Below, in pieces: positions 5,899 to 43,418 of a DNA stretch of 64,000 nucleotides. The translations under genes and the position numbers were made by a program. Origin of the DNA: a virus (Duplodnaviria; Caudoviricetes); IMG/VR virus record IMGVR_UViG_2904541872_000002, positions 1,693 to 65,692 of that record. One strand, 5' to 3'. The notes beneath the pieces are model-generated. The model did no database searches. It was not told where the DNA came from and worked only from the letters and a program-made list of their open reading frames with translations. The stretch's first letter is position 1, and the number at the start of each line of letters is the position of its first letter.

Positions 5899-5940
5899 AT
5901 GATTTCGGCGCGCGGCCGCGCGGTCGAACCCTAGAGGGGG
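5899..5940 (-). promoter_or_regulatory. Late promoter element copy 1 (holin operon), predicted leaderless
   Basis: Minus strand CCCCCTCTAGGG-TTCGAC-N18-AATCAT, ATG 8 nt after the last -10 base. Confidence 0.75.
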
Positions 5941-16600: not shown

Positions 16601-16855
16601 CTTGAAGCGCACGCCAGCGTCCTCGACGGCCTTGCCGGCTCGGCCGCCGGTGAACAGGTCGGCTACACCGACCACGCTCTGCGGCAAGCCCACTGCGCCC
16701 TTCAGCGCGGTGATGCCAACGTCCTTGGCAACGTCGAGCGCGGTGCGTTTCGGCGCCGCGGGCTCGACCTCTTTCGCACCAGCTTTCCACCAGCCGTCAC
16801 CGGCTGGTGCCGACTCCTCGGGCTTGGCGCCCTGCTGCCACCAGTTCTGTTCCAT
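7682..16855 (-). CDS. Giant polyvalent internal virion/ejection protein (ParB-like, LPD5-, LPD1-, LPD3-like, two zincin motifs, ART-PolyVal-like, PLxRFG domain)
   Basis: 3057 aa; LKPTQ...DGHHQW; IQDAGEKIGGARKD; HEWAH; YWTRPTEMFARAFESWV; HEVLGH; FHGT/GFYFT/REFIV; YAPLSRFGRY. Confidence 0.9.
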   Translation of the reverse strand: MEQNWWQQGAKPEESAPAGDGWWKAGAKEVEPAAPKRTALDVAKDVGITALKGAVGLPQSVVGVADLFTGGRAGKAVEDAGVRFKDTQDILADQYSDAQKAANRKVAEADGFVGTAQAMLENPSTIATSVGESIPQMLGGAGVARGVLATGAKIAPAIAGAIGEGVLGAGSQAEQIRQETTDGLLTPQQAALAAASGVTTTAFGAAGGRVAQRLGIGDADTMLAQGSIRGAGHASQRSLARQVGEGVLSEGVLEEVPQSMAEQALQNLALDKPVGEGVGAAAAQGLLAGGAMGGGAALVHGAGARGESAAAPAAEPLQLGYQPDTLVAFPDGTVGRQAEVDAYLARLPEEQRAAARTRLMGLAPQPSPPSTEAPAGAPAVRAAPLPSQAMGIDPAAGPLSTGAAIAVDSGAHGQLLQDAQRQADAAAMAEQEEATAANRAAPPVLDYSDLDERDRTLYDDYFHALDRETEGHMAAALEDDVPDFGDRNVTDEQFLRALGANDQEIADAIQAARGATGPEEGARGAVAPAADVAQGAQPAAAAAPAEQGRAEPAKAIAAPAAPAAAVDAAAAPTSVRDGIARARARRAAPPAPAAPAPAPAPAPAPAPAPAPAVPSARREKAQRRVEEGKAWFLSQAKADAFVSENGLADTHEVVPENRRYVVKERSATSAAPAAPAAHPQAREPLPAAKQLGRAADGEWSTFAADSGTKGVPRSEMPQIRAEHRGAMVNFMSARGIAHTDETVPAASLKPTQAEFSPDRVQWAGEFTGGDRAILVSSDGHVLDGHHQWLAARERGEDVRTIRLDAPIDLLLEAAREFPSSTLDDASAPTPTPTPTPTPTSTPTPTPTPTPTPTPTPEPEPEPTPTPTPTPTPEPTALPSGRPVEAKEPEKKRPPRTPAAAPAESIQDAGEKIGGARKDRWKERGLNVSDLNEMSEAEGAELATKANIWKPDWTALVSGGMNPVTAASAKVIYDRLAAQPKDNTPAGRRRYVRMMQAVRAVYSELTPENIAGAKERLLYDHLRWTEGRSDLARRNAAGIEDLGAHQREARATLFSVYKGRSDPFVLDHSDLMRVRKMVADGFPAKGEPWARRFGVREASGKSLTPRGRELTLEQSAEMGTPLTAEQIAGSYFEVRRQIGGRVLAYAMTREDAEAAARRLYEAELASTTRGQEPERPHLDVLQRAGLPQRLDRDATPDDFIRDFGFRGIEFGNWSAQDERQRIINMAYDGLSDLAQVMGVPPSAMSLNGTMGLAFGARGGGRFAAHYEPGRLVINMTKIRGGGSLAHEWAHALDHYFGELEQADAYQGRARGASGWYTQGSYDGDPQRTGRRGRLENLRPELASAFDRVMSTIYREQVDRAALVRDAELTLERAQARLAGTADEDLKRIYSTGVDSARQNLAKALGLPPDAVRQGRKESSYYESSLGIKEGKESYWTRPTEMFARAFESWVFDRIKAMGARSDYLVHGVESGVQYPAGLERARINQAFDQLATTIETRAGENGNTALFRRGDDGLAGMSPEAANAMRALSRPTYSPQARAQAVATVRKTVDAIRSAWGNAPDIVVAFDMNDAAVPEAARRADLRQRSGGARGAPEGFYYRGKAYLMASRLGTAEDAARVLYHEVLGHHGLRGTFGKQLDGVLNQIATMRRTEVDAKVREYGLRGVNKLDRRAAAEEVLAEMAQNTPELHFVRRAVAAIRTWLRENVAGFRGLRLTDDEIIRNFILPARAFVERSAGAAAPRAGLAFSRAEGTDPDAESRAFLEGAPVAQMTGKEFAPDGVPITEKVTEHYATTGNAQVEVPGIGLVSLDRQSVKSSLFHGIGRDKATAFAAVPDVLKNGKIIHAEAMEGARDAGMVYHVAAPVRISDRDMVEVVLVKADSNAKRMYVHEVVLREKLQQSAFEAGAGAAGAGVQSRADAGAIRSVLDRIYSVNPAEGEPTGTEQTSTPAFRAWFGESKVVDAQGAPLQVFHGTTAEFTAFNDEFLGEGDGNADWGNGFYFTDQKQAAAAYAEGEGGRVMDVYLSLKNPAPLEVVNQVMEQPGAEMDDDYVRQELISRGYDGIIVSHQGGGREFIVFQPGQIKSASGNAGTFDESNPDIMFSRSTVGEYARTAAAELNKSFSAPGRLSWWHKTIGTMYNLAERSPAFKPVFDAAQGFVDDVSHYATDAAELAPKLLPKLETWRDIKKSPISAADNAAVAKPVFEGTLTWARDEQGKPVQVQSLIDAAAGLTSEQKAQRLLRNGMLDERMLKAWQGMPLESYEKAVASRYESRMLQPGVVWSDAELRSMFQLTDDQVALYREFREATNRSLDTMARADMLRFAGDDAKGLRTMVMDAPDAQAAAVLIRDHLAQLAADQPDRSTLLMNTANGIMDRADKVRDLQARGYAPLSRFGRYSVDVVDAKGERQYFGLFETAREANTMAARMRGEFGEGAVSQGTLSEEAFKMFAGVTPETLELFGNALGLSSTGDRAQDQAFQEYLKLTKTNRSAMRRLIHRKGIAGFSEDVGRVLASFIYSNARQTAAGLNMGDLGEAVNAIPKEQGELKDVAVRLAEYVKNPQEEAQAVRGLLFAQYLGGSIASAFVNMTQPAAVTFPWLSQFGGARKAAAALGTAAKNMATKGFEFEPDLAKALKTAEDEGVVAPQEVHQLMAQARGSGSLRAGDGTRLGEARAAGQNALARLSLAWGKVFGAAEQVNRRITFIAAYRVARDRGEADPAAFANRAVKETQFVYSKASKMQWGRGAVGGTLMTFKTYSIAYLELLHRMYTQGGPEGKRAALLALGMLMLMGGSGGLPFAEDAEDVADALAQLLGYNFSAKKARQEVLEAMLPKGIADFLDKGVSGLPGAPLDVSGRLGMGNLIPGTGLLQQKTSHTRDVLEIAGPAGDFASRIFSGALNVAKGNVGAGALEVAPTAVRNAAKGVDMAATGMYRDAKGYKVLETNHLEAALKAIGFQPQSVATIQEANALNQQAKAFYNLRGQEIRAQWAAGIFEKDDAKVRAAREAIADWNAKNPDQPMVIRIPSVLERVRNMQRSKDQRIADTAPRAMRARMQEELARARADAH
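14235..14376. repeat. Hexamer microsatellite (GGGCGT)n with GGGCTC variants, encoding a (PT)n/(PE)n linker
   Basis: About 23 tandem 6-bp units, in frame in the giant protein. Confidence 0.95.
15021..15070. repeat. Hexamer microsatellite (GCCGGT)8 encoding an (AP)n linker
   Basis: Eight perfect 6-bp units. Confidence 0.95.
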
Positions 16856-16861
16856 CCCCCC

Positions 16862-16902
16862 ATCCTCTGCACGAGGGAGGGGGGAGTCGAACCCTAGAGG
16901 GG
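16862..16902 (-). promoter_or_regulatory. Late promoter element copy 2 (giant protein), predicted leaderless
   Basis: CCCCTCTAGGG-TTCGAC-N18-GAGGAT, ATG 7 nt after. Confidence 0.75.
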
Positions 16903-35783: not shown

Positions 35784-38120
35784 CTACACCGGTACGTTGT
35801 CTGACGTGCGCGCGGTCTCGATACCGTCCATGCCCTCGCCGCCGGCGCGCGGCCGCGGCGGGAACGTCGGGCTGCTGTTCTCGCGCACTGGCGGTGCGGC
35901 AGCCGCTTCTTCCTGAGCCGCCGGCGGCACCACCGCGCCACCCTGCCCTTGGATGTACGGGTCCTTGATGTTCATCGCCGCGGTCTGCGCCGGCGTCGGG
36001 AAGTTCGGGTCGTCGCCGCCCGGGCTGGGCCGCGTGTAGCCCGCGCCCTGCATGATCGCGTCGGCGATCGGCGCGATCATCGGCATCTGCGCCACCTGCG
36101 CGCCACCCTGCATCGCTGCGAAGGCCGCCTGCACGCCGGTCTGCACGGCCTGGGCCATCAGCTGCTTGATCTGCGCGTCGGTCAGCCGCTCCTTCATGTC
36201 GAGTTCGCGGGCCTTCAGGTCGTGGCCGGCCATCTTGACCTCCTGCGCCACGCGCTCCTGCACCTGCTTCTCGATCTCCTCGGGCGAGGCCTGCTGACCA
36301 GCGGCGCGCAGCGCCTGCACCAGGTCGCGCTTGAACGGCACGTCCATGAGGCTCGCGAGGAACGGCATGGCCGCCGCCTGGTACTGCGCAGGCAGGCTCT
36401 TGACCGCCTCGCCCATGACGTTGAGCTGCTGCCCGCGGTAGGTGGGGCTGCTCGGCACGTCCTCGAGCCCGACCTTCAGCCGCGTGCGCTGCAGGTCGTT
36501 GCTCAGGTAGGCCACGCCGGTCTTCGGGTCGATCTCGGGCTTGTTGAGGAGGACTGTGCGGTCGGGCGTGATGGCGTCGCCTTCGATGACGATGGTGTGC
36601 GGCTCCTTGCCCATGTCCTCGACGATCATGGCCAACAGCAGCTCGCCCACCTGGGTGCGCGCGGCCTTGAAGTTGTCCATCAGGTGCGCCAGGCCCTGGT
36701 TCGCCTGCTCGACCTGCGTCTCCTCCTGCACGCCGCTGGTGGCCGTGCCGCGGCGGCCCGAGAACGCACCGGCCGCCGCCGGCGCGACGCGCTCGAGCGC
36801 CATGCGCGCGTCGTTGAGCATCTGCAACTGCTGGTCGGTGAGCTGCACGTCGCGCTTCACCTCGAACCGCGCGCCCTGCTGCGCCATTGCCGCGGCGTTG
36901 AGCACGATGTCGGCATTGCGGCGCCCGACCTGGCGGCGCAGTTGCTCGTCGGTCATGTCGACGGCGCCTTTCGTGCGCTCCACCCGGTAGGCGCTCATGC
37001 CCCATGTCATCGTGGCCGTGCCGCTGTTCAGCCGGTCCTGCTGGAAGATCATGCCGCGCACCAGGCCGTAGGGCACGCGCGTGCCGTCCTCCCGGTAGCC
37101 CCAGAACGGCACGTAGGGAAAATGCCGGTGCGTGTACGGGCTGGGCCCGTCGTGTAGGCGGTGCGGCCCGAGCCAGAAGCTGCGGCGCACGCGCGCGATG
37201 ACGGTGTGCTGCGGGCGCACGAGGCCGCGGGCCAGCGAGTAGTTGTGGACCGCGTTCTCCCGGTCGTACTCGACCACGCGGCCATCAGGCGAGCGCAGCA
37301 CCACGGCCTCGGCCCAGCGGCGGTACCAGACCTCGGACACGCACATGTCCTTGCTGACCGGGTCGTACCAGTTGTGCTCGGCCACGGTCCAGCCACGCGC
37401 CGCGTCCCAGGCGCCCGTGGTCAGCCCGGTAGAGCCGCCGCCGTCCAGCGACTCGGGCGAGAGATTCACCCACCAGTTCTGCCCGTGGCGGCCGCACTCG
37501 ATGATCAGGTCCTTGTGCTTCGGGAACACCTTGGCGACGCGGCTCGGCGGCAGCCAGCGCTCGCGGCGCAGGTAGCGCGCGTCGCTCAAGTCGTCCTCCT
37601 TGGCGTAGAAGTCCCAGTGGATCTCGTTGCGGTGCACGGCGCTGCAGCGGTACTGGTACTTGAAGGGGTCCGACTCGCGCGAGACCTCCACCCAGCCGAG
37701 GCCCACGGCCGCCTGCGGTCGGAAGGCCTTCGAGCACGCCTGGTCGGCCTTGGAATGGCGCTCGGCCTCGTTGAGCCGGAAGTTGAGCGCCTCGGCGACG
37801 TCCTGGCCTTCCGGCTGGCCATTCGGCGTCACGCGCCAGTCCGTGCGCACCGTCGCCTCGTAGCCCTGGATGGCCAGCAGCGCCGGCCCAATGAGGTCCT
37901 CCTTCGCTGGCGGGATGCCCAGCTCCTTCTGCGCGCGCAGCAGCTCGGTGTCCAGCTGGTTGCCGTCGGCGTAGTCGAGTTCCTTGTCGGCCACGGAGCG
38001 CCACGGCGGCTGCTGCTCGATCTCATAGATGAACTGGCGGTATTCCTCGAGGGTCAGCGCGCCGTCGGCGTCGATCTCCTCCTCGATGCTCAGGGTGGTG
38101 GTGCTGTTGCTCATGGTCAT
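35784..38120 (-). CDS. Portal protein, P22-like
   Basis: Start ATG 38120; ELDYADGNQL, GLGWVEV, FPYVPFWGYR, YGLVRGMIFQQD, GTATSG; long C-terminal barrel/tail. Confidence 0.9.
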   Translation of the reverse strand: MTMSNSTTTLSIEEEIDADGALTLEEYRQFIYEIEQQPPWRSVADKELDYADGNQLDTELLRAQKELGIPPAKEDLIGPALLAIQGYEATVRTDWRVTPNGQPEGQDVAEALNFRLNEAERHSKADQACSKAFRPQAAVGLGWVEVSRESDPFKYQYRCSAVHRNEIHWDFYAKEDDLSDARYLRRERWLPPSRVAKVFPKHKDLIIECGRHGQNWWVNLSPESLDGGGSTGLTTGAWDAARGWTVAEHNWYDPVSKDMCVSEVWYRRWAEAVVLRSPDGRVVEYDRENAVHNYSLARGLVRPQHTVIARVRRSFWLGPHRLHDGPSPYTHRHFPYVPFWGYREDGTRVPYGLVRGMIFQQDRLNSGTATMTWGMSAYRVERTKGAVDMTDEQLRRQVGRRNADIVLNAAAMAQQGARFEVKRDVQLTDQQLQMLNDARMALERVAPAAAGAFSGRRGTATSGVQEETQVEQANQGLAHLMDNFKAARTQVGELLLAMIVEDMGKEPHTIVIEGDAITPDRTVLLNKPEIDPKTGVAYLSNDLQRTRLKVGLEDVPSSPTYRGQQLNVMGEAVKSLPAQYQAAAMPFLASLMDVPFKRDLVQALRAAGQQASPEEIEKQVQERVAQEVKMAGHDLKARELDMKERLTDAQIKQLMAQAVQTGVQAAFAAMQGGAQVAQMPMIAPIADAIMQGAGYTRPSPGGDDPNFPTPAQTAAMNIKDPYIQGQGGAVVPPAAQEEAAAAPPVRENSSPTFPPRPRAGGEGMDGIETARTSDNVPV

Positions 38121-38130
38121 GGTGGTGCTC

Positions 38131-39882
38131 CTACACGCGCCAGTCGGAGGCCGGGGCCTCGACGTAGGCGGTGTTGTCGGTGAGGTTGGACAGCAGGCCC
38201 AGCTCCTTGGCCTGGGCCCACTGGCGCAGCGCGTCGGCACCCTCGGTGCAGCCGTTGCTCTTGTCGGGCTGGTCGAGATAGCGGCTCTCCGACTGGCTGA
38301 ATTTCTTGCGGTAGCCCTGGATGCGCTCGACACCTTGCTTCGTGGCGTCGAGGTCGAAGAAGGCGCCCTTGATGTGCTTACGCACGGCGTAGATGCCGGC
38401 CATCAGATCGGTGACGCACGGCACGATGAAGAAGGCCTGGCCAGGCAGCAGCTGCTCGAGCTGCTCCTTCGTGCTCCTGTTGTAGTCGCCGAGGCGCTTG
38501 TGGTTCGCGTCGTGCGGCAGGAAGTGGCCGCCGTAGAGGTAGCCGCGGTCCTGGAGGTGCCGCGCGTAGTGGCGCAGGTCCTCGCCGTGCTCCTCGTAGT
38601 AGCCGATGAACCGGTCCTCGCTGCGCAGGATCTGCATGAACCAGATGGCCGTGCCGTCTTTGTTGCCGATGTCCCAGAACGTGAACACGGGCAGGTCGAG
38701 CACCGGCACCTGGCAGATGCCGCCTCGCTTGCGCAGCAACACCATGTCCTTCGCGTAGTAGTGGCCGGCCGTGGACTGCTGGAATGCCTCCTCGGGGGTC
38801 GAGGGGTACTCTTGCCACATGCGCTCCTCTTTGCCCGAGAAGTCATTGCGCAGCTTCTCGACGTACCAGGCGCGCTGGCCCAGGTCGATCTTGGCGTCGA
38901 TCTTCGACTCGAGCTCGTCGAAGTAGTCGTGCTGCTCGGGCGTGATGGACACGCCGGCCGGGTCGATCGAGTAGGTCGGGTCCTGCCACCAGGCGTAGAA
39001 GTGGAAGCGGTACTGGCTGGGCGTCAGCTTGCGCGCGCCGGCCACCAGCGCCTGGGCGCGCTGGCAGATGTCGTAGAACTCGCCCTCGGTGCCTTCGGCC
39101 GTGCTCTCGATGACCAGGATGCCGGACAGCGGCACGGCCTGGAACGAGCCCGTGACGACTTCGTTGGCCTTCGCGGGAAACTTGGCGCAGATCTTCCCGA
39201 ACTCGGAGACGTGCAGCCTGTGGATGGTGCCGCCGCGCACGCTGGTGGCCACGCGGATGCTGCTGTTGTTGTGGCCGAACAGCAGTTCCTTCGTGCTGGC
39301 GCGCGCGAGCGGAAAGCGCTGACGGATCTCCTCGGGCAGGTGGTCGTATGCGAAGACGACCTTGTCGCGGAAGATGGCCTCGGCCGTCTCGCGGTCCTGC
39401 GCGATCATGCCGCAGCGCTGGTTCCCGTTGAACAGCGCGTGGTCGAGCCAGAGGATGGCGACCAGCGTGGTGAAGCCGAGCTGCCGAGCCTTCAGGATGA
39501 CGTTGCGGTGCCAGAGCCTGGTGATGAAGCGCTTCTGCGCGCGGTTCGGCTTGAACGGCATGACGAAGGAATCGCCCTCGTCGATGACCTCGCCCTCCTC
39601 GTTCCTGATCGGCTCGCCCTTGACGATGATCTGGTAGAGGCAGCCGCTGAACAGGCGCCACTGCGGGTCGCGCAAGCAGCGCTCGAGTTCCGCCGCGTCC
39701 GTGGGCAGGAAGTCGGCGTGCTTGGCGATGTGCGGCCCGCGCTTCGGCCGGCGCCGGTTGTCCCAGCGGTGCCCGAGCTGCGCGTCGAGGTCGCGACCAG
39801 GCTCGACCTCAAGCGCGGTGTCGTCCTCGTCAAGCGTGCCCGGGTCGGCGGGGCGCGCCGCAGCCTTAGCCTGGAGCGCCAT
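38131..39882 (-). CDS. Terminase large subunit
   Basis: Walker A LKARQLGFTT, Walker B LHVSEFG, IESTAEG, nuclease WDIG, HFLPHD, ADALR; start ATG 39882. Confidence 0.95.
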   Translation of the reverse strand: MALQAKAAARPADPGTLDEDDTALEVEPGRDLDAQLGHRWDNRRRPKRGPHIAKHADFLPTDAAELERCLRDPQWRLFSGCLYQIIVKGEPIRNEEGEVIDEGDSFVMPFKPNRAQKRFITRLWHRNVILKARQLGFTTLVAILWLDHALFNGNQRCGMIAQDRETAEAIFRDKVVFAYDHLPEEIRQRFPLARASTKELLFGHNNSSIRVATSVRGGTIHRLHVSEFGKICAKFPAKANEVVTGSFQAVPLSGILVIESTAEGTEGEFYDICQRAQALVAGARKLTPSQYRFHFYAWWQDPTYSIDPAGVSITPEQHDYFDELESKIDAKIDLGQRAWYVEKLRNDFSGKEERMWQEYPSTPEEAFQQSTAGHYYAKDMVLLRKRGGICQVPVLDLPVFTFWDIGNKDGTAIWFMQILRSEDRFIGYYEEHGEDLRHYARHLQDRGYLYGGHFLPHDANHKRLGDYNRSTKEQLEQLLPGQAFFIVPCVTDLMAGIYAVRKHIKGAFFDLDATKQGVERIQGYRKKFSQSESRYLDQPDKSNGCTEGADALRQWAQAKELGLLSNLTDNTAYVEAPASDWRV

Positions 39883-40804
39883 CGTCCACGTCCTGGCGCG
39901 GCAGGAGGCTATTCGTGCCGCTGGGAGCCTCGGGCGCCTCCGGGTCGTTGGCCACGGGCCGGAACCCGTTGCCATTGCCATTCGCGATGCTGTGCAGCAG
40001 GGCCGCCAGAGGGTCGGTCTTCTGCTGGTTGTCCTTCTCGTAGAGGCCCAGGTGCTTGAACAGCTTCTCCATGGCCGCGCCCTTGTCGTGCATCGAGATC
40101 TCGATGCCGTACTTGGTCATCTTGGCGCCGGCGTAGAGAGCGAGCGCCCGCGGCGACAGGCGGCGTGTGTCGGCCAGCACGGTGCGCGCGTGGCCATCGC
40201 CGCCGCAGTCCGGGCAGGCCGGGTGCGGCGGCTTGAGCGGGTCGAAGCCGATGCCGCCCTTCTCGTCGAAGTCGGCCGGGCCGCCGCCCTTCACGGCGTG
40301 CTGCTCGCGGTCGTGATTGAACTCGCCGATGGTGCGCTGCCACTTGAAGCCCTCGCCCCAGCAGTGCCGGCAGCAGCCGACCTTCACCTGCACCAGCTCG
40401 CGCGGGTCGGCCAGCATGATGTTCCACGCCTCGGTCACCACGCGGTCCGCGTCGACCTGCGTGCGCTCCTGCTGCGCCTTCCTGGCATCAGCGATCGCGG
40501 CCTGGATGTACGGTTTTGACAGGTTCTCCGAGGCCATCTGCCGCGCGCTGTCGGGGCTGTATCCGGCCCGGACTGCTGCCTGCGTGCCGTTTAGGTCGAC
40601 CAGGTACTCGTCGACGAAGCGCTGCTGCAGGTCGGTAAGGCCGAGCTGGGCCGGATCCGTTGCTGGTCGGCGTGGCTTCTTCGGCTTGGCGGCCGGTGCC
40701 CTCTTGCGCGCAGGCGAGCCCGCGGCCTTCTTGGGGGCTGCGGGCTTGGTGGTGGTCTTCTTCGGTGCGGGCGCCGGCTTCTTGGCCGGCTTGCGTGGTG
40801 CCAT
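39866..40804 (-). CDS. Terminase small subunit with zinc-finger insertion
   Basis: LTDLQQRFVDEYLVDLNGTQAAVRAGYS; CRHCWG...CPDCGGDG; HDKGAAMEKLFKHLG. Confidence 0.9.
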   Translation of the reverse strand: MAPRKPAKKPAPAPKKTTTKPAAPKKAAGSPARKRAPAAKPKKPRRPATDPAQLGLTDLQQRFVDEYLVDLNGTQAAVRAGYSPDSARQMASENLSKPYIQAAIADARKAQQERTQVDADRVVTEAWNIMLADPRELVQVKVGCCRHCWGEGFKWQRTIGEFNHDREQHAVKGGGPADFDEKGGIGFDPLKPPHPACPDCGGDGHARTVLADTRRLSPRALALYAGAKMTKYGIEISMHDKGAAMEKLFKHLGLYEKDNQQKTDPLAALLHSIANGNGNGFRPVANDPEAPEAPSGTNSLLPRQDVDDGAPG

Positions 40805-40811
40805 GCGGGCG

Positions 40812-40854
40812 AGTCTTCCGCGCGCGGGCCCGGGGGGCGAACCCTATAGGGGGG
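40812..40854 (-). promoter_or_regulatory. Late promoter element copy 7 (terminase operon), predicted leaderless
   Basis: CCCCCCTATAGGG-TTCGCC-N18-AAGACT, ATG 8 nt after, no SD. Confidence 0.75.
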
Positions 40855-40993
40855 CCCATCGACGCGAAGCTCGGGCGAAAGAACCAGGTCCTAGGGTTGC
40901 ACACGAGAACTTATGGTTCAGCACTGTAGGACAGCGTCTCGGCGGGGAGCGAAACCCTTGCGCCTACAGCCGATGTCTCTTGAAGATTAGGGG

Positions 40994-41194
40994 ATGCTCG
41001 TCTCTGATCCCGAATTGAAATCGCGCCTGACGGCTCAAATGGCCTGGGAGGCTGCATGCGAGCGGGTTCGCAAGACGCTGCACCCACCTCTTGGCTATCC
41101 CAAGCCAACCCCGGAGGAACTCGAGGCCGCCTTCACGAATGCCGCAGAACGGCTGCATACCTTGCGCGTCATCTGCACCACGCCAGAGGAATGA
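40994..41194 (+). CDS. Small hypothetical protein (66 aa)
   Basis: ATG after GGGG, helical amphipathic sequence, stop abuts terminator A tract. Confidence 0.55.
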   Translation: MLVSDPELKSRLTAQMAWEAACERVRKTLHPPLGYPKPTPEELEAAFTNAAERLHTLRVICTTPEE

Positions 41195-41222
41195 AAAAAC
41201 CCGCCAGGGTGGTCCTGGCGGG
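41194..41222 (-). terminator. Intrinsic terminator of candidate ncRNA
   Basis: 9-bp stem 41200-41208 / 41214-41222, T6 on the minus strand. Confidence 0.85.
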
Positions 41223-41428
41223 CGAACGTGCGACCGAGGCCGCTCGAGGAGACAACTGGCCGGCTCGATGCCGGGAGCGGTCCATCCGACTACGCGCGCT
41301 GCGCGCTGGACCGTGCGGTTTCGTCCCACCCTGCAACCCCTGGGACGAGCAGGAGGAAAAATCCGGAGTGGCTTACCCCCCACTCCAGCACCAGGGCTGG
41401 CGCCGTGTTCGGGGTCCGGTTGCCCGTG
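41194..41428 (-). ncRNA. Candidate structured ncRNA (about 235 nt)
   Basis: Upstream late promoter copy, at least four hairpins, no convincing ORF, ends in terminator CCCGCCAGG-ACCAC-CCTGGCGGG-TTTTTT. Confidence 0.6.
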
Positions 41429-41434
41429 GCCTGA

Positions 41435-41476
41435 ATCTTCCGGCTGCCGGCACATGCGGCGAATCCCTACAGGGGG
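41435..41476 (-). promoter_or_regulatory. Late promoter element copy 8 (ncRNA)
   Basis: CCCCCTGTAGGG-ATTCGC-N18-GAAGAT. Confidence 0.65.
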
Positions 41477-41499
41477 ACGGCGCAACCTGATCGGGGACA

Positions 41500-42177
41500 A
41501 TGCTCGTCCGATTCATGGAGGCGAACTTGGCATCCCTCACCCATTTCGAGATGGAACAGGCGCTCCGGAAGGCGGGCGTGGCTGTTCGCCCATACCCCAC
41601 AGCGACGCACGATTTGAAGGCGCACGATCTTCGCGAAGAGGATCGACGGCTAATCGAGGCCGGATCTGCCTGGGAGCGGGAGCTAGAGCGCCTTTATGCA
41701 ATGCACGTTCAGGACGCACATGCCGGCGAGCAGATGGATTTCGCGCTGCGGTTCGACACCACATGCACGGAGAAAGGCATGGGCCCGGCGCTGGCCTTGC
41801 TGAACTCGGAGGTGCCCCACCGATTCACCGGCGTCTATCGCGCTACGCCGACCTCTATGGTTCTCGTCGAGCTATTAGACAAGGATGGCGCGCCTCGGCC
41901 CGACTACCTCGCCGAGGTTCCTCTGGCCTCCAGTTTCTGTCAGTACGTGCTGCGCGACGGCTCATTCCTGACGGACAACTCTGGTACCGACCAGCGGCTG
42001 AACGGTCACCCCTACCAGGGCGTGTTGCTGGCGTACTGCGGAGCGCCCATCTTCAATGCCAAGGGCGTCCCCATCGGCACTGTCTGCCACTTCGACGCCG
42101 TGTCGTGCGAGGCATCCGAAGTTCAGATCGCCCGGCTGCACGCGGCGGCCACGATCCTTTCCAACTACCTCCGGTAG
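41500..42177 (+). CDS. Stand-alone GAF-domain protein
   Basis: HRFTGVYR, SFCQYV, D.RL.GHP, YCGAPI...G..IGTVCHFD; true start may be internal. Confidence 0.75.
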   Translation: MLVRFMEANLASLTHFEMEQALRKAGVAVRPYPTATHDLKAHDLREEDRRLIEAGSAWERELERLYAMHVQDAHAGEQMDFALRFDTTCTEKGMGPALALLNSEVPHRFTGVYRATPTSMVLVELLDKDGAPRPDYLAEVPLASSFCQYVLRDGSFLTDNSGTDQRLNGHPYQGVLLAYCGAPIFNAKGVPIGTVCHFDAVSCEASEVQIARLHAAATILSNYLR

Positions 42178-42198
42178 CCGTTACTCAAAGCTGCAAGG

Positions 42199-42606
42199 CT
42201 AGATTTCGGATGCGGAGCCGAGATTGTTCCGCGAGACGCTGAAAATAGCGCCCGTGCCGCTGGAAACTACTCGAGCGATTTGTCGGCGTTCACGCATTTT
42301 CTCTCGACCGACCCGCCAAGACTCACGCAGGTCAGCCCTGATGCGTTCGAGTTCAGCGTGGCCTTCCGACGTTATCGCCAACACTGTGGCTTTTTGCACC
42401 GGCAGGTTCCTGCCGTGCATCTCGAACGGAGGAAAGGACTCAGAAATAATGAGGCCGGTGGATGTCAGAATCCGCACGTGATTCAAATCGACAGGGCTCC
42501 AAGTTTCCTTGGGCAAGGCACCTGCGGCCAAACTCAATAGGAACAAGCGCGGCGTATCGACCAAGTCCCCACAGGCGTCTTTCCTTCTGTCGTCAGGAAT
42601 GCTCAT
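42199..42606 (-). CDS. Hypothetical protein (possible winged-helix-like fold)
   Basis: 135 aa, SPVDLNHVRILTSTGLI...VLAITSEGHAEL; low GC. Confidence 0.65.
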   Translation of the reverse strand: MSIPDDRRKDACGDLVDTPRLFLLSLAAGALPKETWSPVDLNHVRILTSTGLIISESFPPFEMHGRNLPVQKATVLAITSEGHAELERIRADLRESWRVGREKMRERRQIARVVSSGTGAIFSVSRNNLGSASEI

Positions 42607-42821: not shown

Positions 42822-42896
42822 TGGTTGCGGTGGCCCGATGAACGGGCGACCTGTGGGTTATGAGCCCTCTGCGCTACCTGGCTGCGCTACACCGCG
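42822..42896 (-). tRNA. Degenerate initiator-type tRNA-Met(CAT), possibly pseudo-tRNA
   Basis: C1:A72 mismatch, three G-C pairs in anticodon stem, CTCATAA loop, encoded CCA; T-loop only 5 nt (TTCAT), A28:A42 mismatch. Confidence 0.75.
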
Positions 42897-43418
42897 GTCA
42901 AAGTGTGGAACGTTCGCGGCCGGCACGCCCGCCCGACAGGGGGTATCGAACAGCTGCACCTGCTTCGGGTCGACCGGCGCCTCGAGAGCGGCCACCCGGC
43001 GGCGCAGGCGCTTGATCTCCTCGCCCATCTCGGCCGCCAGCAGGGCGGTGTTGCGACCGGTCTCGATGGCAATCGCCTGTGCGGCCGCGCCGGCCTGCAG
43101 CGCCGCCAGCATGCGGTCCTCGCGCGGCGTGAGCTGGAACACCATGTCGCCAATCTCGATCTTCACCCAACCGTCGGCCAGCAGCGTCTTCGACATGGCG
43201 CGCGCCGGCGGGTGCTGGATGGCCGGCACGTAGACGCCGCGCTGCACGCGCAGGATGTCGCCGCGGTCGACCAGCGTGCCGACGCGGTCGTCGATGATGC
43301 TGAGCGTCAGGCCGGTGAGCTCGGCCAGCGTCTCTCGGGTGACGATTTGCTCCTTGGCGTGCAGGTCCTGCACGGCCTCGAGCACGATGGTGGTGCTTGA
43401 TTTGCGGTCTTCGGGCAT
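42858..43418 (-). CDS. Winged-helix DNA-binding protein, candidate late activator
   Basis: TRETLAELTGLTLSIIDDRVGTLVDRGDILRVQRGVY; last early-right gene; stop codon falls in the tRNA anticodon loop. Confidence 0.7.
   Translation of the reverse strand: MPEDRKSSTTIVLEAVQDLHAKEQIVTRETLAELTGLTLSIIDDRVGTLVDRGDILRVQRGVYVPAIQHPPARAMSKTLLADGWVKIEIGDMVFQLTPREDRMLAALQAGAAAQAIAIETGRNTALLAAEMGEEIKRLRRRVAALEAPVDPKQVQLFDTPCRAGVPAANVPHFDRGVAQPGSAEGS

Follow-up and report, generated by a model that had tools for sequence, protein, structure and literature searches.

The S17/tsRNA family is among the most widely conserved families of regulatory small RNAs (sRNAs) in Betaproteobacteria, and its physiological role is only beginning to emerge. 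According to Kimelman et al. (2012), as cited in PMC4603805 and PMC5688073, Rfam family RF02278, the 'Betaproteobacteria toxic small RNA' (tsRNA) family, includes the 'double-hairpin' sRNAs ncS03/05/27/62 of Burkholderia cenocepacia. These have CU-rich stretches complementary to ribosome-binding sites (RBSs) (PMC5688073; PMC4603805), and ncS27 is processed to a short form (PMC5688073). S17 of Bordetella pertussis is homologous to RF02278 (PMC11722255). Its long form, S17L, of 190 nt ends at an intrinsic terminator and is cut by RNase E at GU/GU, which yields the stable, Hfq-dependent S17S of 67 nt (PMC11722255). The single-stranded 5' end and the first loop of S17S pair with the RBSs of transporter genes, an acyl-CoA dehydrogenase-family gene and the gene for a sigma-54 activator, and direct repression was shown for the latter (PMC11722255). 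Here, we describe a gene for a structured RNA of ~233 nt in a provirus of the Caudoviricetes (IMG/VR record IMGVR_UViG_2904541872_000002), of which a stretch of 64,000 nucleotides (positions 1,693 to 65,692), hereafter called the window, was analyzed. The RNA is encoded on the minus strand upstream of terS, the gene for the small terminase TerS, and its 3' module appears to be a diverged relative or close mimic of the RF02278 family, of which it is not a member by the Rfam criterion.

The gene is a self-contained unit on the minus strand, in which a promoter copy, the GC-rich RNA and a terminator with six U residues (U6) follow each other in that order (Table 1). In blastn comparisons, the block 41193-41482 was kept at 69-94% identity in more than 12 loci, while its flanks were not; outside the block, only a 49-nt stretch with a second promoter copy before terS recurs in relatives. 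Homologues were collected by fetching relatives of TerS from viral contigs, by pattern scans of viral and metagenome contigs, and with nhmmer. This yielded 16 distinct full-length homologues in related P22-like proviruses and metagenome contigs, to which the scan of metagenomes with a pattern for the 5' domain contributed only five new full-length sequences. Among public phage genomes, blastn found no match. The long form was also not found in 81 genomes of Variovorax species; the only finds there were in G001, which has the short form, and in G069, with a single disrupted remnant. A first genome-wide DNA pattern (seed plus TTCGCCC) had been too loose: most of its 120 genome matches were due to chance, and only the one in Variovorax paradoxus was real. 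The remnant (L311:1470-1570) is a decayed copy, in which the promoter and the first ~55 nt of the long form are intact and are followed by unrelated sequence. The original prediction, made from the letters of the window, was a discrete structured non-coding RNA gene of ~235 nt between a full promoter copy and a strong terminator. The conserved block and the covariation in the 16 homologues confirm such a gene at 41193-41427 (minus strand), and both boundaries are present, the one as a member of a six-site motif, the other as a 10-bp stem with U6.

The fold of the RNA in the window has a minimum free energy of -115.6 kcal/mol and is not stabler than those of shuffled sequences (z = -1.1). At such a high GC content, thermodynamics alone thus proves nothing, and the support for the structure comes from comparative data. 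The structure tested was hand-drawn and consists of hairpins P1, P2, P3, P4 (with an outer and an inner part), P5 and P6 and of the terminator P7; counting an H-type pseudoknot, covariation supports eight helices overall. The hand-drawn structure pairs 94.1% of 875 cells as compared with 32-42% after a shift of the 3' partners by 1-3 columns, and it shows compensatory changes at 12 pairs (30 cells), against 0-3 pairs (0-4 cells) in the slid controls. None of 500 shuffles reached the observed covariation score. The four hairpins that had been called from the window alone (P2, P3 at 41322-41347, P4 and P5) are all present and are kept via compensatory changes, so covariation upholds these stems; P1, P6 and the pseudoknot come in addition. 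A scan of all column pairs for further long-range helices or pseudoknots gave nothing convincing beyond those listed.

Helix S1 of the pseudoknot joins the linker ahead of P3 to the 5' half of that hairpin's loop; with P3 itself, this makes a classical H-type fold. Both of its helices are paired in 100% of the cells, with three compensatory pairs, versus 42-60% in slid controls. This affects the element to which an anti-Shine-Dalgarno (anti-SD) function had been assigned at first, i.e., the supposedly unpaired linker TTTTTCCTCCTG (41349-41360) with the core UUUUUCCUCCUG. The linker is there in the sequence but is unlikely to be unpaired, as it provides a strand of S1. Neither is its core conserved: CCUCC is found in only 2 of the 16 homologues (the window and L002), and the others have CCCCU, CCCCC or GCCCC. 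The notion of an anti-SD repressor nevertheless remains the best reading of the RNA, but the element responsible lies elsewhere, in an invariant seed at 41245-41258 that is identical to that of host RF02278 sRNAs. The MFE (minimum free energy) fold of the window had suggested that this seed is sequestered by the 5' leader; this was rejected, as the duplex was no better than with shuffled leaders in 16/16 sequences. Behind P2, both the window (41363-41388, minus strand) and L002 have AUUUUU, a second terminator-like site that could give a 5' fragment of ~70 nt. P2 with this U-run was considered as an attenuator and dismissed, the U-run being confined to the window and a few relatives.

In the paired columns, 88 cells hold G-U as compared with 20 that hold A-C, which would be the G-U pairs of the opposite strand; therefore, the RNA of the minus strand is the selected form. 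That the conserved entity is instead a small protein, encoded on either strand, is hardly credible. Long frames are open here, one of 178 amino acids (aa) that spans the region on the minus strand (40964-41500) and others of 68 and 144 aa on the plus strand, and GC is mildly raised at one codon phase. However, a GC content of 67% makes an open reading frame (ORF) of 178 aa unremarkable. The codon phases have even shares of the variable columns (40/78, 38/78 and 42/77) without any 3-nt periodicity, and close relatives differ by indels of 1 and 2 nt that disrupt all frames; neither a frame nor a start codon is common to them. The 178-aa (minus) and 68-aa (plus) frames, the two that were compared with Pfam, had no match there, and the pattern of variation is explained by compensatory base-pair changes. 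The initial description of the locus as one with no SD-led ORF thus holds.

The truly invariant single-stranded element of the RNA is CAGUUGUCUCCUCG (41245-41258), which is followed by the CU-loop hairpin P6 and then by the terminator. It is the most invariant stretch of the whole RNA. The P6 loop is CU-rich in all variants (CCUC, CUCC, ACCUU and UCCU). In several loci, the 3' module occurs in a short form, in which CAGUUGUCUCCUCG stands ~10 nt past the -10-like hexamer of the same promoter motif and is followed by P6 and the terminator, the 170-nt 5' domain being missing. Short forms were found in L006, L235 (to which L206 and L247 are identical) and L112, a prophage of V. paradoxus NBRC 15149, the genome of which also contains a terS region 82% identical to that of the window. 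In these genes, the seed is at most ~10 nt away from the presumed start. In L010, the same 3' module lies downstream of a tRNA-Met gene, with no aligned motif ahead. As the 3' module stands alone behind the promoter in these loci, the last ~65 nt make up a complete sRNA gene in which the seed is 5'-terminal, and the long form in the window is accordingly this gene plus a structured 5' extension of ~170 nt.

The relationship of this module to RF02278 emerged from covariance models applied in both directions. At gathering thresholds, no Rfam family matched the region; at E ≤ 10, a weak match to RF02278 appeared together with two spurious ones. A comparison with Rfam, which had been proposed with the original prediction, thus gave a mixed answer, with nothing at the cut-off and an RF02278 match of 23.4 bits below it. 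The RF02278 model aligns end to end (positions 1-64) with 41193-41254, with E = 0.016 when all families were run on 451 nt and E = 5.5e-4 in a search of the record with this family only. None of the homologues tested against RF02278 scored enough to be listed. In V. paradoxus, the same model finds an accepted member of 62.9 bits and a second match of 37.7 bits, below the cut-off. Both V. paradoxus genes begin with (G/A)GUUGUCUCCU(C/U), then have a CU-loop hairpin and then a terminator; GUUGUCUCCUC is also present in the 62.9-bit member and GUUGUCUCCU in the 37.7-bit match. Phage module and host sRNAs hence have an 11-nt seed in common as well as the same architecture: at its 5' end, the short RNA has a CU-rich anti-SD seed, UGUCUCCUC, which is single-stranded, and then comes a double hairpin consisting of the CU-loop hairpin P6 and the intrinsic terminator P7, both with compensatory changes. 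Reciprocally, a model built from phage 3' modules only, R1, recovered the two V. paradoxus tsRNA genes in a search of 361 kb, one with 35.9 bits (E = 4.5e-6) and the other with 29.4 bits (E = 1.6e-4), and one of them was also matched in a search of the whole genome (E = 0.0026).

Several features are thus held in common with RF02278, i.e., the CU-rich seed UGUCUCCUC, the CU-loop hairpin, a short linker, the terminator, the size of ~60-70 nt and the betaproteobacterial host. On the other hand, the hairpin and terminator sequences are unrelated, the phage RNA is prophage-borne behind a phage-specific promoter, and no described member of RF02278 has anything like the pseudoknotted 5' extension of 170 nt in the long form. 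The likeness to S17 extends further, to a long primary transcript with an intrinsic terminator and a ~65-nt 3' sRNA in which the seed comes after a G-U-rich site of the RNase E type; here, an AG/UUGU site lies between P5 and the seed, and the short-form genes start there. In P6, the loop is the counterpart of 'Site 2' of S17 and of the tsRNAs. For both S17 and the phage RNA, RBSs of transporter and catabolic genes are the predicted targets. In contrast, S17 is chromosomal and driven by sigma-A, while the 5' part of the phage RNA is a conserved structured RNA, the processing of which is predicted by analogy.

Based on these features, we consider it probable, at roughly 60%, that the RNA is a phage-encoded, probably late-expressed S17/tsRNA-like repressor of ribosome-binding sites that copies or mimics a host regulator. 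From the conservation, structure and strand of the RNA, the identity of its seed and the positions of host matches, we infer the timing of expression, processing, Hfq dependence and repression as follows. Transcription would start at one of the six phage-specific promoter copies, which would fire together with the structural genes, and would stop at the RNA's own intrinsic terminator, giving the ~233-nt RNA. Its active module would be the 3' ~65 nt with the single-stranded seed GUUGUCUCCUC, the CU-loop hairpin and the terminator with a U-tail of the type found in Hfq-dependent sRNAs. An RNase E cut just 5' of UUGU, as in the conversion of S17L to S17S, would free this ~65-nt RNA from the long form with UUGUCUCC as its 5' end, and the short-form relatives would make the short RNA as a primary transcript. 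The ~65-nt RNA would then bind Hfq. Since the seed is complementary to GAGGAGACAAC, which comprises an SD sequence plus spacer, the RNA should cover the RBSs of the host tsRNA regulon and block translation. Candidates for repression are genes for transporter solute-binding proteins and for acyl-CoA catabolism, and the effect may be that abundant proteins for uptake and catabolism cease to be made while virions are produced, or in the lysogenic state, should the promoter be leaky.

Targets were sought in V. paradoxus NBRC 15149. The seed complement GAGGAGACAAC has six sites in this genome. Two of them represent the sRNA genes; each of the remaining four is located 0-4 nt ahead of the start codon ATG of a long ORF. 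A control with the reversed pattern gave 0 sites. As judged from the N-terminal sequences alone, these ORFs encode an isovaleryl/acyl-CoA dehydrogenase, a TerC-family membrane protein, and periplasmic binding proteins of the LivJ-like and the Bug/TctC type. These host sites are supportive of, but not decisive for, the predicted repression. Phage RNAs can also act on the mRNAs of their own phage, as is the case for the c4 antisense RNA of P1/P7 and sar of P22, and the promoter that the RNA has in common with the structural genes could fit such a role, e.g., a late shut-off of early genes. For the present RNA, such an action in place of one on host mRNAs is quite improbable, because the window contains no seed-complementary site except the gene's own antisense strand. 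The shorter GAGGAGAC occurs just once elsewhere in the window, at 36718-36725 inside the span of the portal ORF, and the best duplexes are formed with GC-rich coding sequence, not with start regions.

A number of points weigh against a tsRNA-like repressor. The 3' module, with 23.4 bits, remains below the gathering score of 50 of RF02278, which is the cut-off for membership. Beyond the seed, its sequence differs from those of the host tsRNAs, and this divergence makes convergence or mimicry indistinguishable from descent. GAGGAGAC occurs 67 times in V. paradoxus and is continued with AAC in four cases where ~1 would be expected, which is a modest enrichment, and SD-like words are found near start codons anyway. 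Furthermore, V. paradoxus served as a proxy in place of the genome of the provirus's own host, the late timing is deduced solely from the positions of the promoter copies, and the conservation of the 5' domain is stronger than a mere precursor role would explain.

The last point deserves separate consideration. The 5' domain, which comprises P1, P2, the pseudoknot, P4 with its conserved bulge, and P5, is under structural selection of its own: five helices and the pseudoknot covary, the loops GGGGYAAR and GGGGAUKCAGGG and the bulge AGUCGGA are near-invariant, the constraint exceeds the needs of an sRNA precursor, and no Rfam family matches. Its role could be stabilization, control of processing or a second function. 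Carried to its end, this would make the pseudoknotted domain the main functional RNA, be it a protein-binding scaffold of a ribonucleoprotein, a sponge that captures CU-rich host sRNAs via its G-rich loops, or a cofactor of packaging or assembly, with the 3' module serving mostly as terminator or stabilizer. We regard this strong version as unlikely, since the 3' module occurs alone in relatives behind the same promoter, since every 5' domain among the scanned contigs and genomes was accompanied by a 3' module, apart from the one disrupted remnant, and since the seed is the most invariant part. An independent function of the 5' domain is nonetheless a serious alternative, and one that is compatible with the sRNA reading of the 3' module. 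A tentative idea, less probable than otherwise, is that the ~170-nt domain, joined to a tsRNA-like sRNA in a two-in-one regulatory RNA, represents a functional phage RNA of a new class in its own right. It may be, for example, an element that binds a ligand or a protein and gates seed release, or a second, stable product by which a host factor is titrated. If so, a phage would use a two-in-one RNA to take over a regulon conserved across Betaproteobacteria. In any case, the pseudoknotted domain is well supported by covariation as a structured RNA, and it is uncatalogued.

The promoter ahead of the RNA gene belongs to the phage. Its palindrome CCCTNTAGGG has six sites in the window, where 0.11 would be expected (0/100 shuffles). 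All six copies face the minus strand upstream of structural genes and can be aligned, with a TTCG.C box and a GAAGAT-like hexamer downstream in common. The motif is kept ahead of the RNA in 11/13 homologues and is also found ahead of the short form. The label 'late promoter copy' in the original prediction is supported by this position in front of structural genes, and by position only; the promoter is probably activator-dependent and late. As cognate activator, a winged-helix (wHTH) protein of PHROG 8117 is a candidate, given its co-occurrence with the motif across 80 TerS-related loci. The 19 loci that have both the gene and the motif are all in the closer part of the TerS family. Among the 38 loci without the gene, 35 also lack the motif, and the three exceptions end prematurely upstream of terS. 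In many relatives, one copy of the motif lies within the 3' end of the wHTH gene itself, just ahead of tRNA-Met. At three of the six copies (40804-40860, 16855-16901 and 5930-5938, minus strand), an ATG follows only 6-8 nt after the -10-like hexamer, in the case of terS as GAAGACTCGCCCGCATG. The first genes behind these copies may therefore have leaderless or nearly leaderless mRNAs, which, if true, would escape an anti-SD sRNA.

Short terminated transcripts from a late-type promoter just upstream of the late genes are known from other phages, i.e., the 6S RNA of lambda and StxS of Shiga toxin (Stx) phages, in which the short PR'-tR' transcript is an sRNA that acts in trans (PMC7547250). The present RNA resembles these, as it runs from a late-type promoter to a terminator, on the strand of terS and in the interval that separates this gene from the end of the early region. 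Hence, it could be thought of as a cis-acting leader of the late operon, either antiterminated in the manner of lambda 6S/tR' or similar to the put RNAs, which make polymerase resistant to termination. We hold this to be very improbable. Q antitermination at a single late promoter yields StxS as a by-product, whereas here the RNA is a stand-alone unit behind one of six promoter copies. Another copy serves terS, both in the window and in the relatives that have the motif, so that terS is independent of read-through from the RNA gene. None of the ten ORFs tested at 35.8-44.5 kb matched an antiterminator family in Pfam or PHROGs, and the upstream gene is the wHTH gene of PHROG 8117. Short forms, moreover, do without the 5' structure. 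Finally, the RNA gene is located 8 nt to ~1.1 kb upstream of the terS promoter copy, with unrelated DNA in between; in the window, this DNA contains an oppositely oriented ORF. Some close TerS relatives have the RNA gene and others lack it, among the latter L004, the TerS of which is 87% identical. The variable distance and the absence in L004 therefore mark it as an accessory cassette, not a leader of terS. In L005 (3247-3322) and L276 (3292-3365), the place of the promoter is taken by a tRNA-Met gene that immediately adjoins the RNA's 5' domain. This arrangement implies co-transcription and release by tRNA-processing enzymes, and it also fits an RNA product.

A packaging-related RNA, which had been offered as the other possible function at the outset, has no support, as the gene is missing from some close TerS relatives and terS is at a variable distance behind a promoter of its own. 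To our knowledge, packaging of the P22 type needs no RNA. The RNA resembles the pRNA of phi29 in being structured and encoded near packaging genes, but it has no match to pRNA in Rfam, and its gene is dispensable among close relatives in TerS, as its absence from L004 illustrates.

Parallels in terms of function are AgvB and AsxR of prophages of enterohemorrhagic Escherichia coli, and DicF, prophage sRNAs that tie into the sRNA networks of the host (reviewed in PMC12197685). The present RNA is likewise phage-borne and predicted to affect a host regulon under the control of Hfq and sRNAs. AgvB and AsxR, however, antagonize host sRNAs by target mimicry, whereas the present RNA carries the seed of the host sRNA itself and would thus reinforce or take over the regulon. 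This suggests that phages take over the tsRNA regulon by copying the host regulator itself, i.e., the opposite of what AgvB and AsxR do. A 2025 review of phage-derived sRNAs makes no mention of Burkholderia, Variovorax or Betaproteobacteria and includes no phage RNA with the seed of a host sRNA; its sole 'mimic' is AgvB, which mimics mRNA targets (PMC12197685). The RNA could provide a natural gain-of-function handle on the tsRNA regulon, with solute-binding proteins, acyl-CoA dehydrogenase and TerC as concrete predicted targets, and the short form in the prophage of the sequenced strain V. paradoxus NBRC 15149 may be an experimental entry point.

Table 1. Features of the RNA gene and of its surroundings, with coordinates in the window.
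Feature	Position	Strand	Basis
Primary transcript, ~233 nt, ending in U-tract	41193-41427	-	Conserved block and 16 homologues; start placed ~7 nt past the -10-like hexamer
Phage-specific promoter copy: palindrome CCCTGTAGGG (41465-41474), ATTCGCC, spacer, -10-like hexamer GAAGAT (41435-41440)	41435-41476	-	Motif count, alignment, conservation
P1 hairpin, GGCGCCA/UGGUGCU, loop GCCC	41387-41404	-	98% of cells pair; G-U, G-C and A-U exchanges
P2 hairpin, GGAGUGG/CCACUCC, conserved loop GGGGYAAR	41365-41386	-	97% of cells pair
H-type pseudoknot: S1, 41351-41355 with 41337-41341; S2 (= P3), 41342-41347 with 41322-41327	41322-41355	-	Covariation
P4 two-part hairpin: outer CGGUCCA/UGGACCG, inner GCGCGC/GCGCGU, conserved 3' bulge AGUCGGA	41278-41313	-	96-97% paired; 5 compensatory pairs
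P5 hairpin, CCGGC/GCCGG	41260-41274	-	In all homologues; 88% pairing, alignment slightly misregistered
Putative RNase E site just 5' of UUGU, single-stranded AG/UUGU junction	Between P5 and seed	-	Analogy with S17 (PMC11722255)
Invariant single-stranded seed CCAGUUGUCUCCUCG, between P5 and P6	41245-41259	-	Invariant in 16 long and 4 short forms
Anti-SD core GUUGUCUCCUC	41246-41256	-	Invariant in 20 phage copies
P6 hairpin, CU-rich loop (GCCUCGGU)	41227-41246	-	90% of cells pair; G-C to C-G swaps in 5 sequences
P7 intrinsic terminator, 10-bp GC stem (41199-41223), then U6	41193-41223	-	Terminator scan; G-C to A-U compensations
Second promoter copy, directly ahead of terS	40815-40860	-	Copy alignment; conserved 49-nt stretch
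Small terminase gene terS, ATG at 40804	39866-40804	-	P22-type late gene
Large terminase gene	38131-39981	-	P22-type late gene
Portal gene	35784-38333	-	P22-type late gene
wHTH gene, PHROG 8117	42858-43418	-	PHROGs match
66-aa ORF	40994-41194	+	Not kept in related loci
225-aa gene	41500-42177	+	Not kept in related loci

The provirus is 65.7 kb long in IMG/VR and has a GC content of ~67%. Its late genes are of the P22 type and all lie on the minus strand; the N-terminus of TerS is kept from residue 1 among the relatives in viral contigs. The right end of the provirus contains an integrase gene, three tRNA genes and gltX of the host. The gltX DNA is 87% identical to that of V. paradoxus NBRC 15149 and at most 81% identical to those of 60 other sampled genomes of the same family; therefore, the host is a Variovorax-like betaproteobacterium. 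Between the tRNA gene and the promoter of the RNA (41500-42606), two convergent cargo genes of lower GC content (54-64%) encode proteins of 225 aa (plus strand) and 135 aa (minus strand), neither of which matched Pfam. The segment 41500-42300 had no blastn match in the TerS-related loci, and the divergent 225-aa gene was given up as an anchor, since it had zero relatives in viral contigs. This gene and the 66-aa ORF on the plus strand, which are not kept in related loci, are local cargo outside the RNA element.

In more distant phages, the model R1 also found matches upstream of terS, a clear one in L051, one with E = 0.013 in L048, and weak ones (E ~0.2) in L060 and L065; tsRNA-like genes may thus recur at this position in betaproteobacterial P22-like phages. 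The gene in L051 (2420-2550; TerS 47% identical) is located ~1.5 kb upstream of terS, and its sigma-70 promoter, TTGTCA-17-TATAAT, is close to consensus. Small RNA genes seem to accumulate in the stretch upstream of terS: in other members of the TerS family, the Proteo-phage-1 RNA of Rfam (RF03044) is found there, namely in L059 (75-152; 78 bits) and in L050 (1233-1310; 68 bits).

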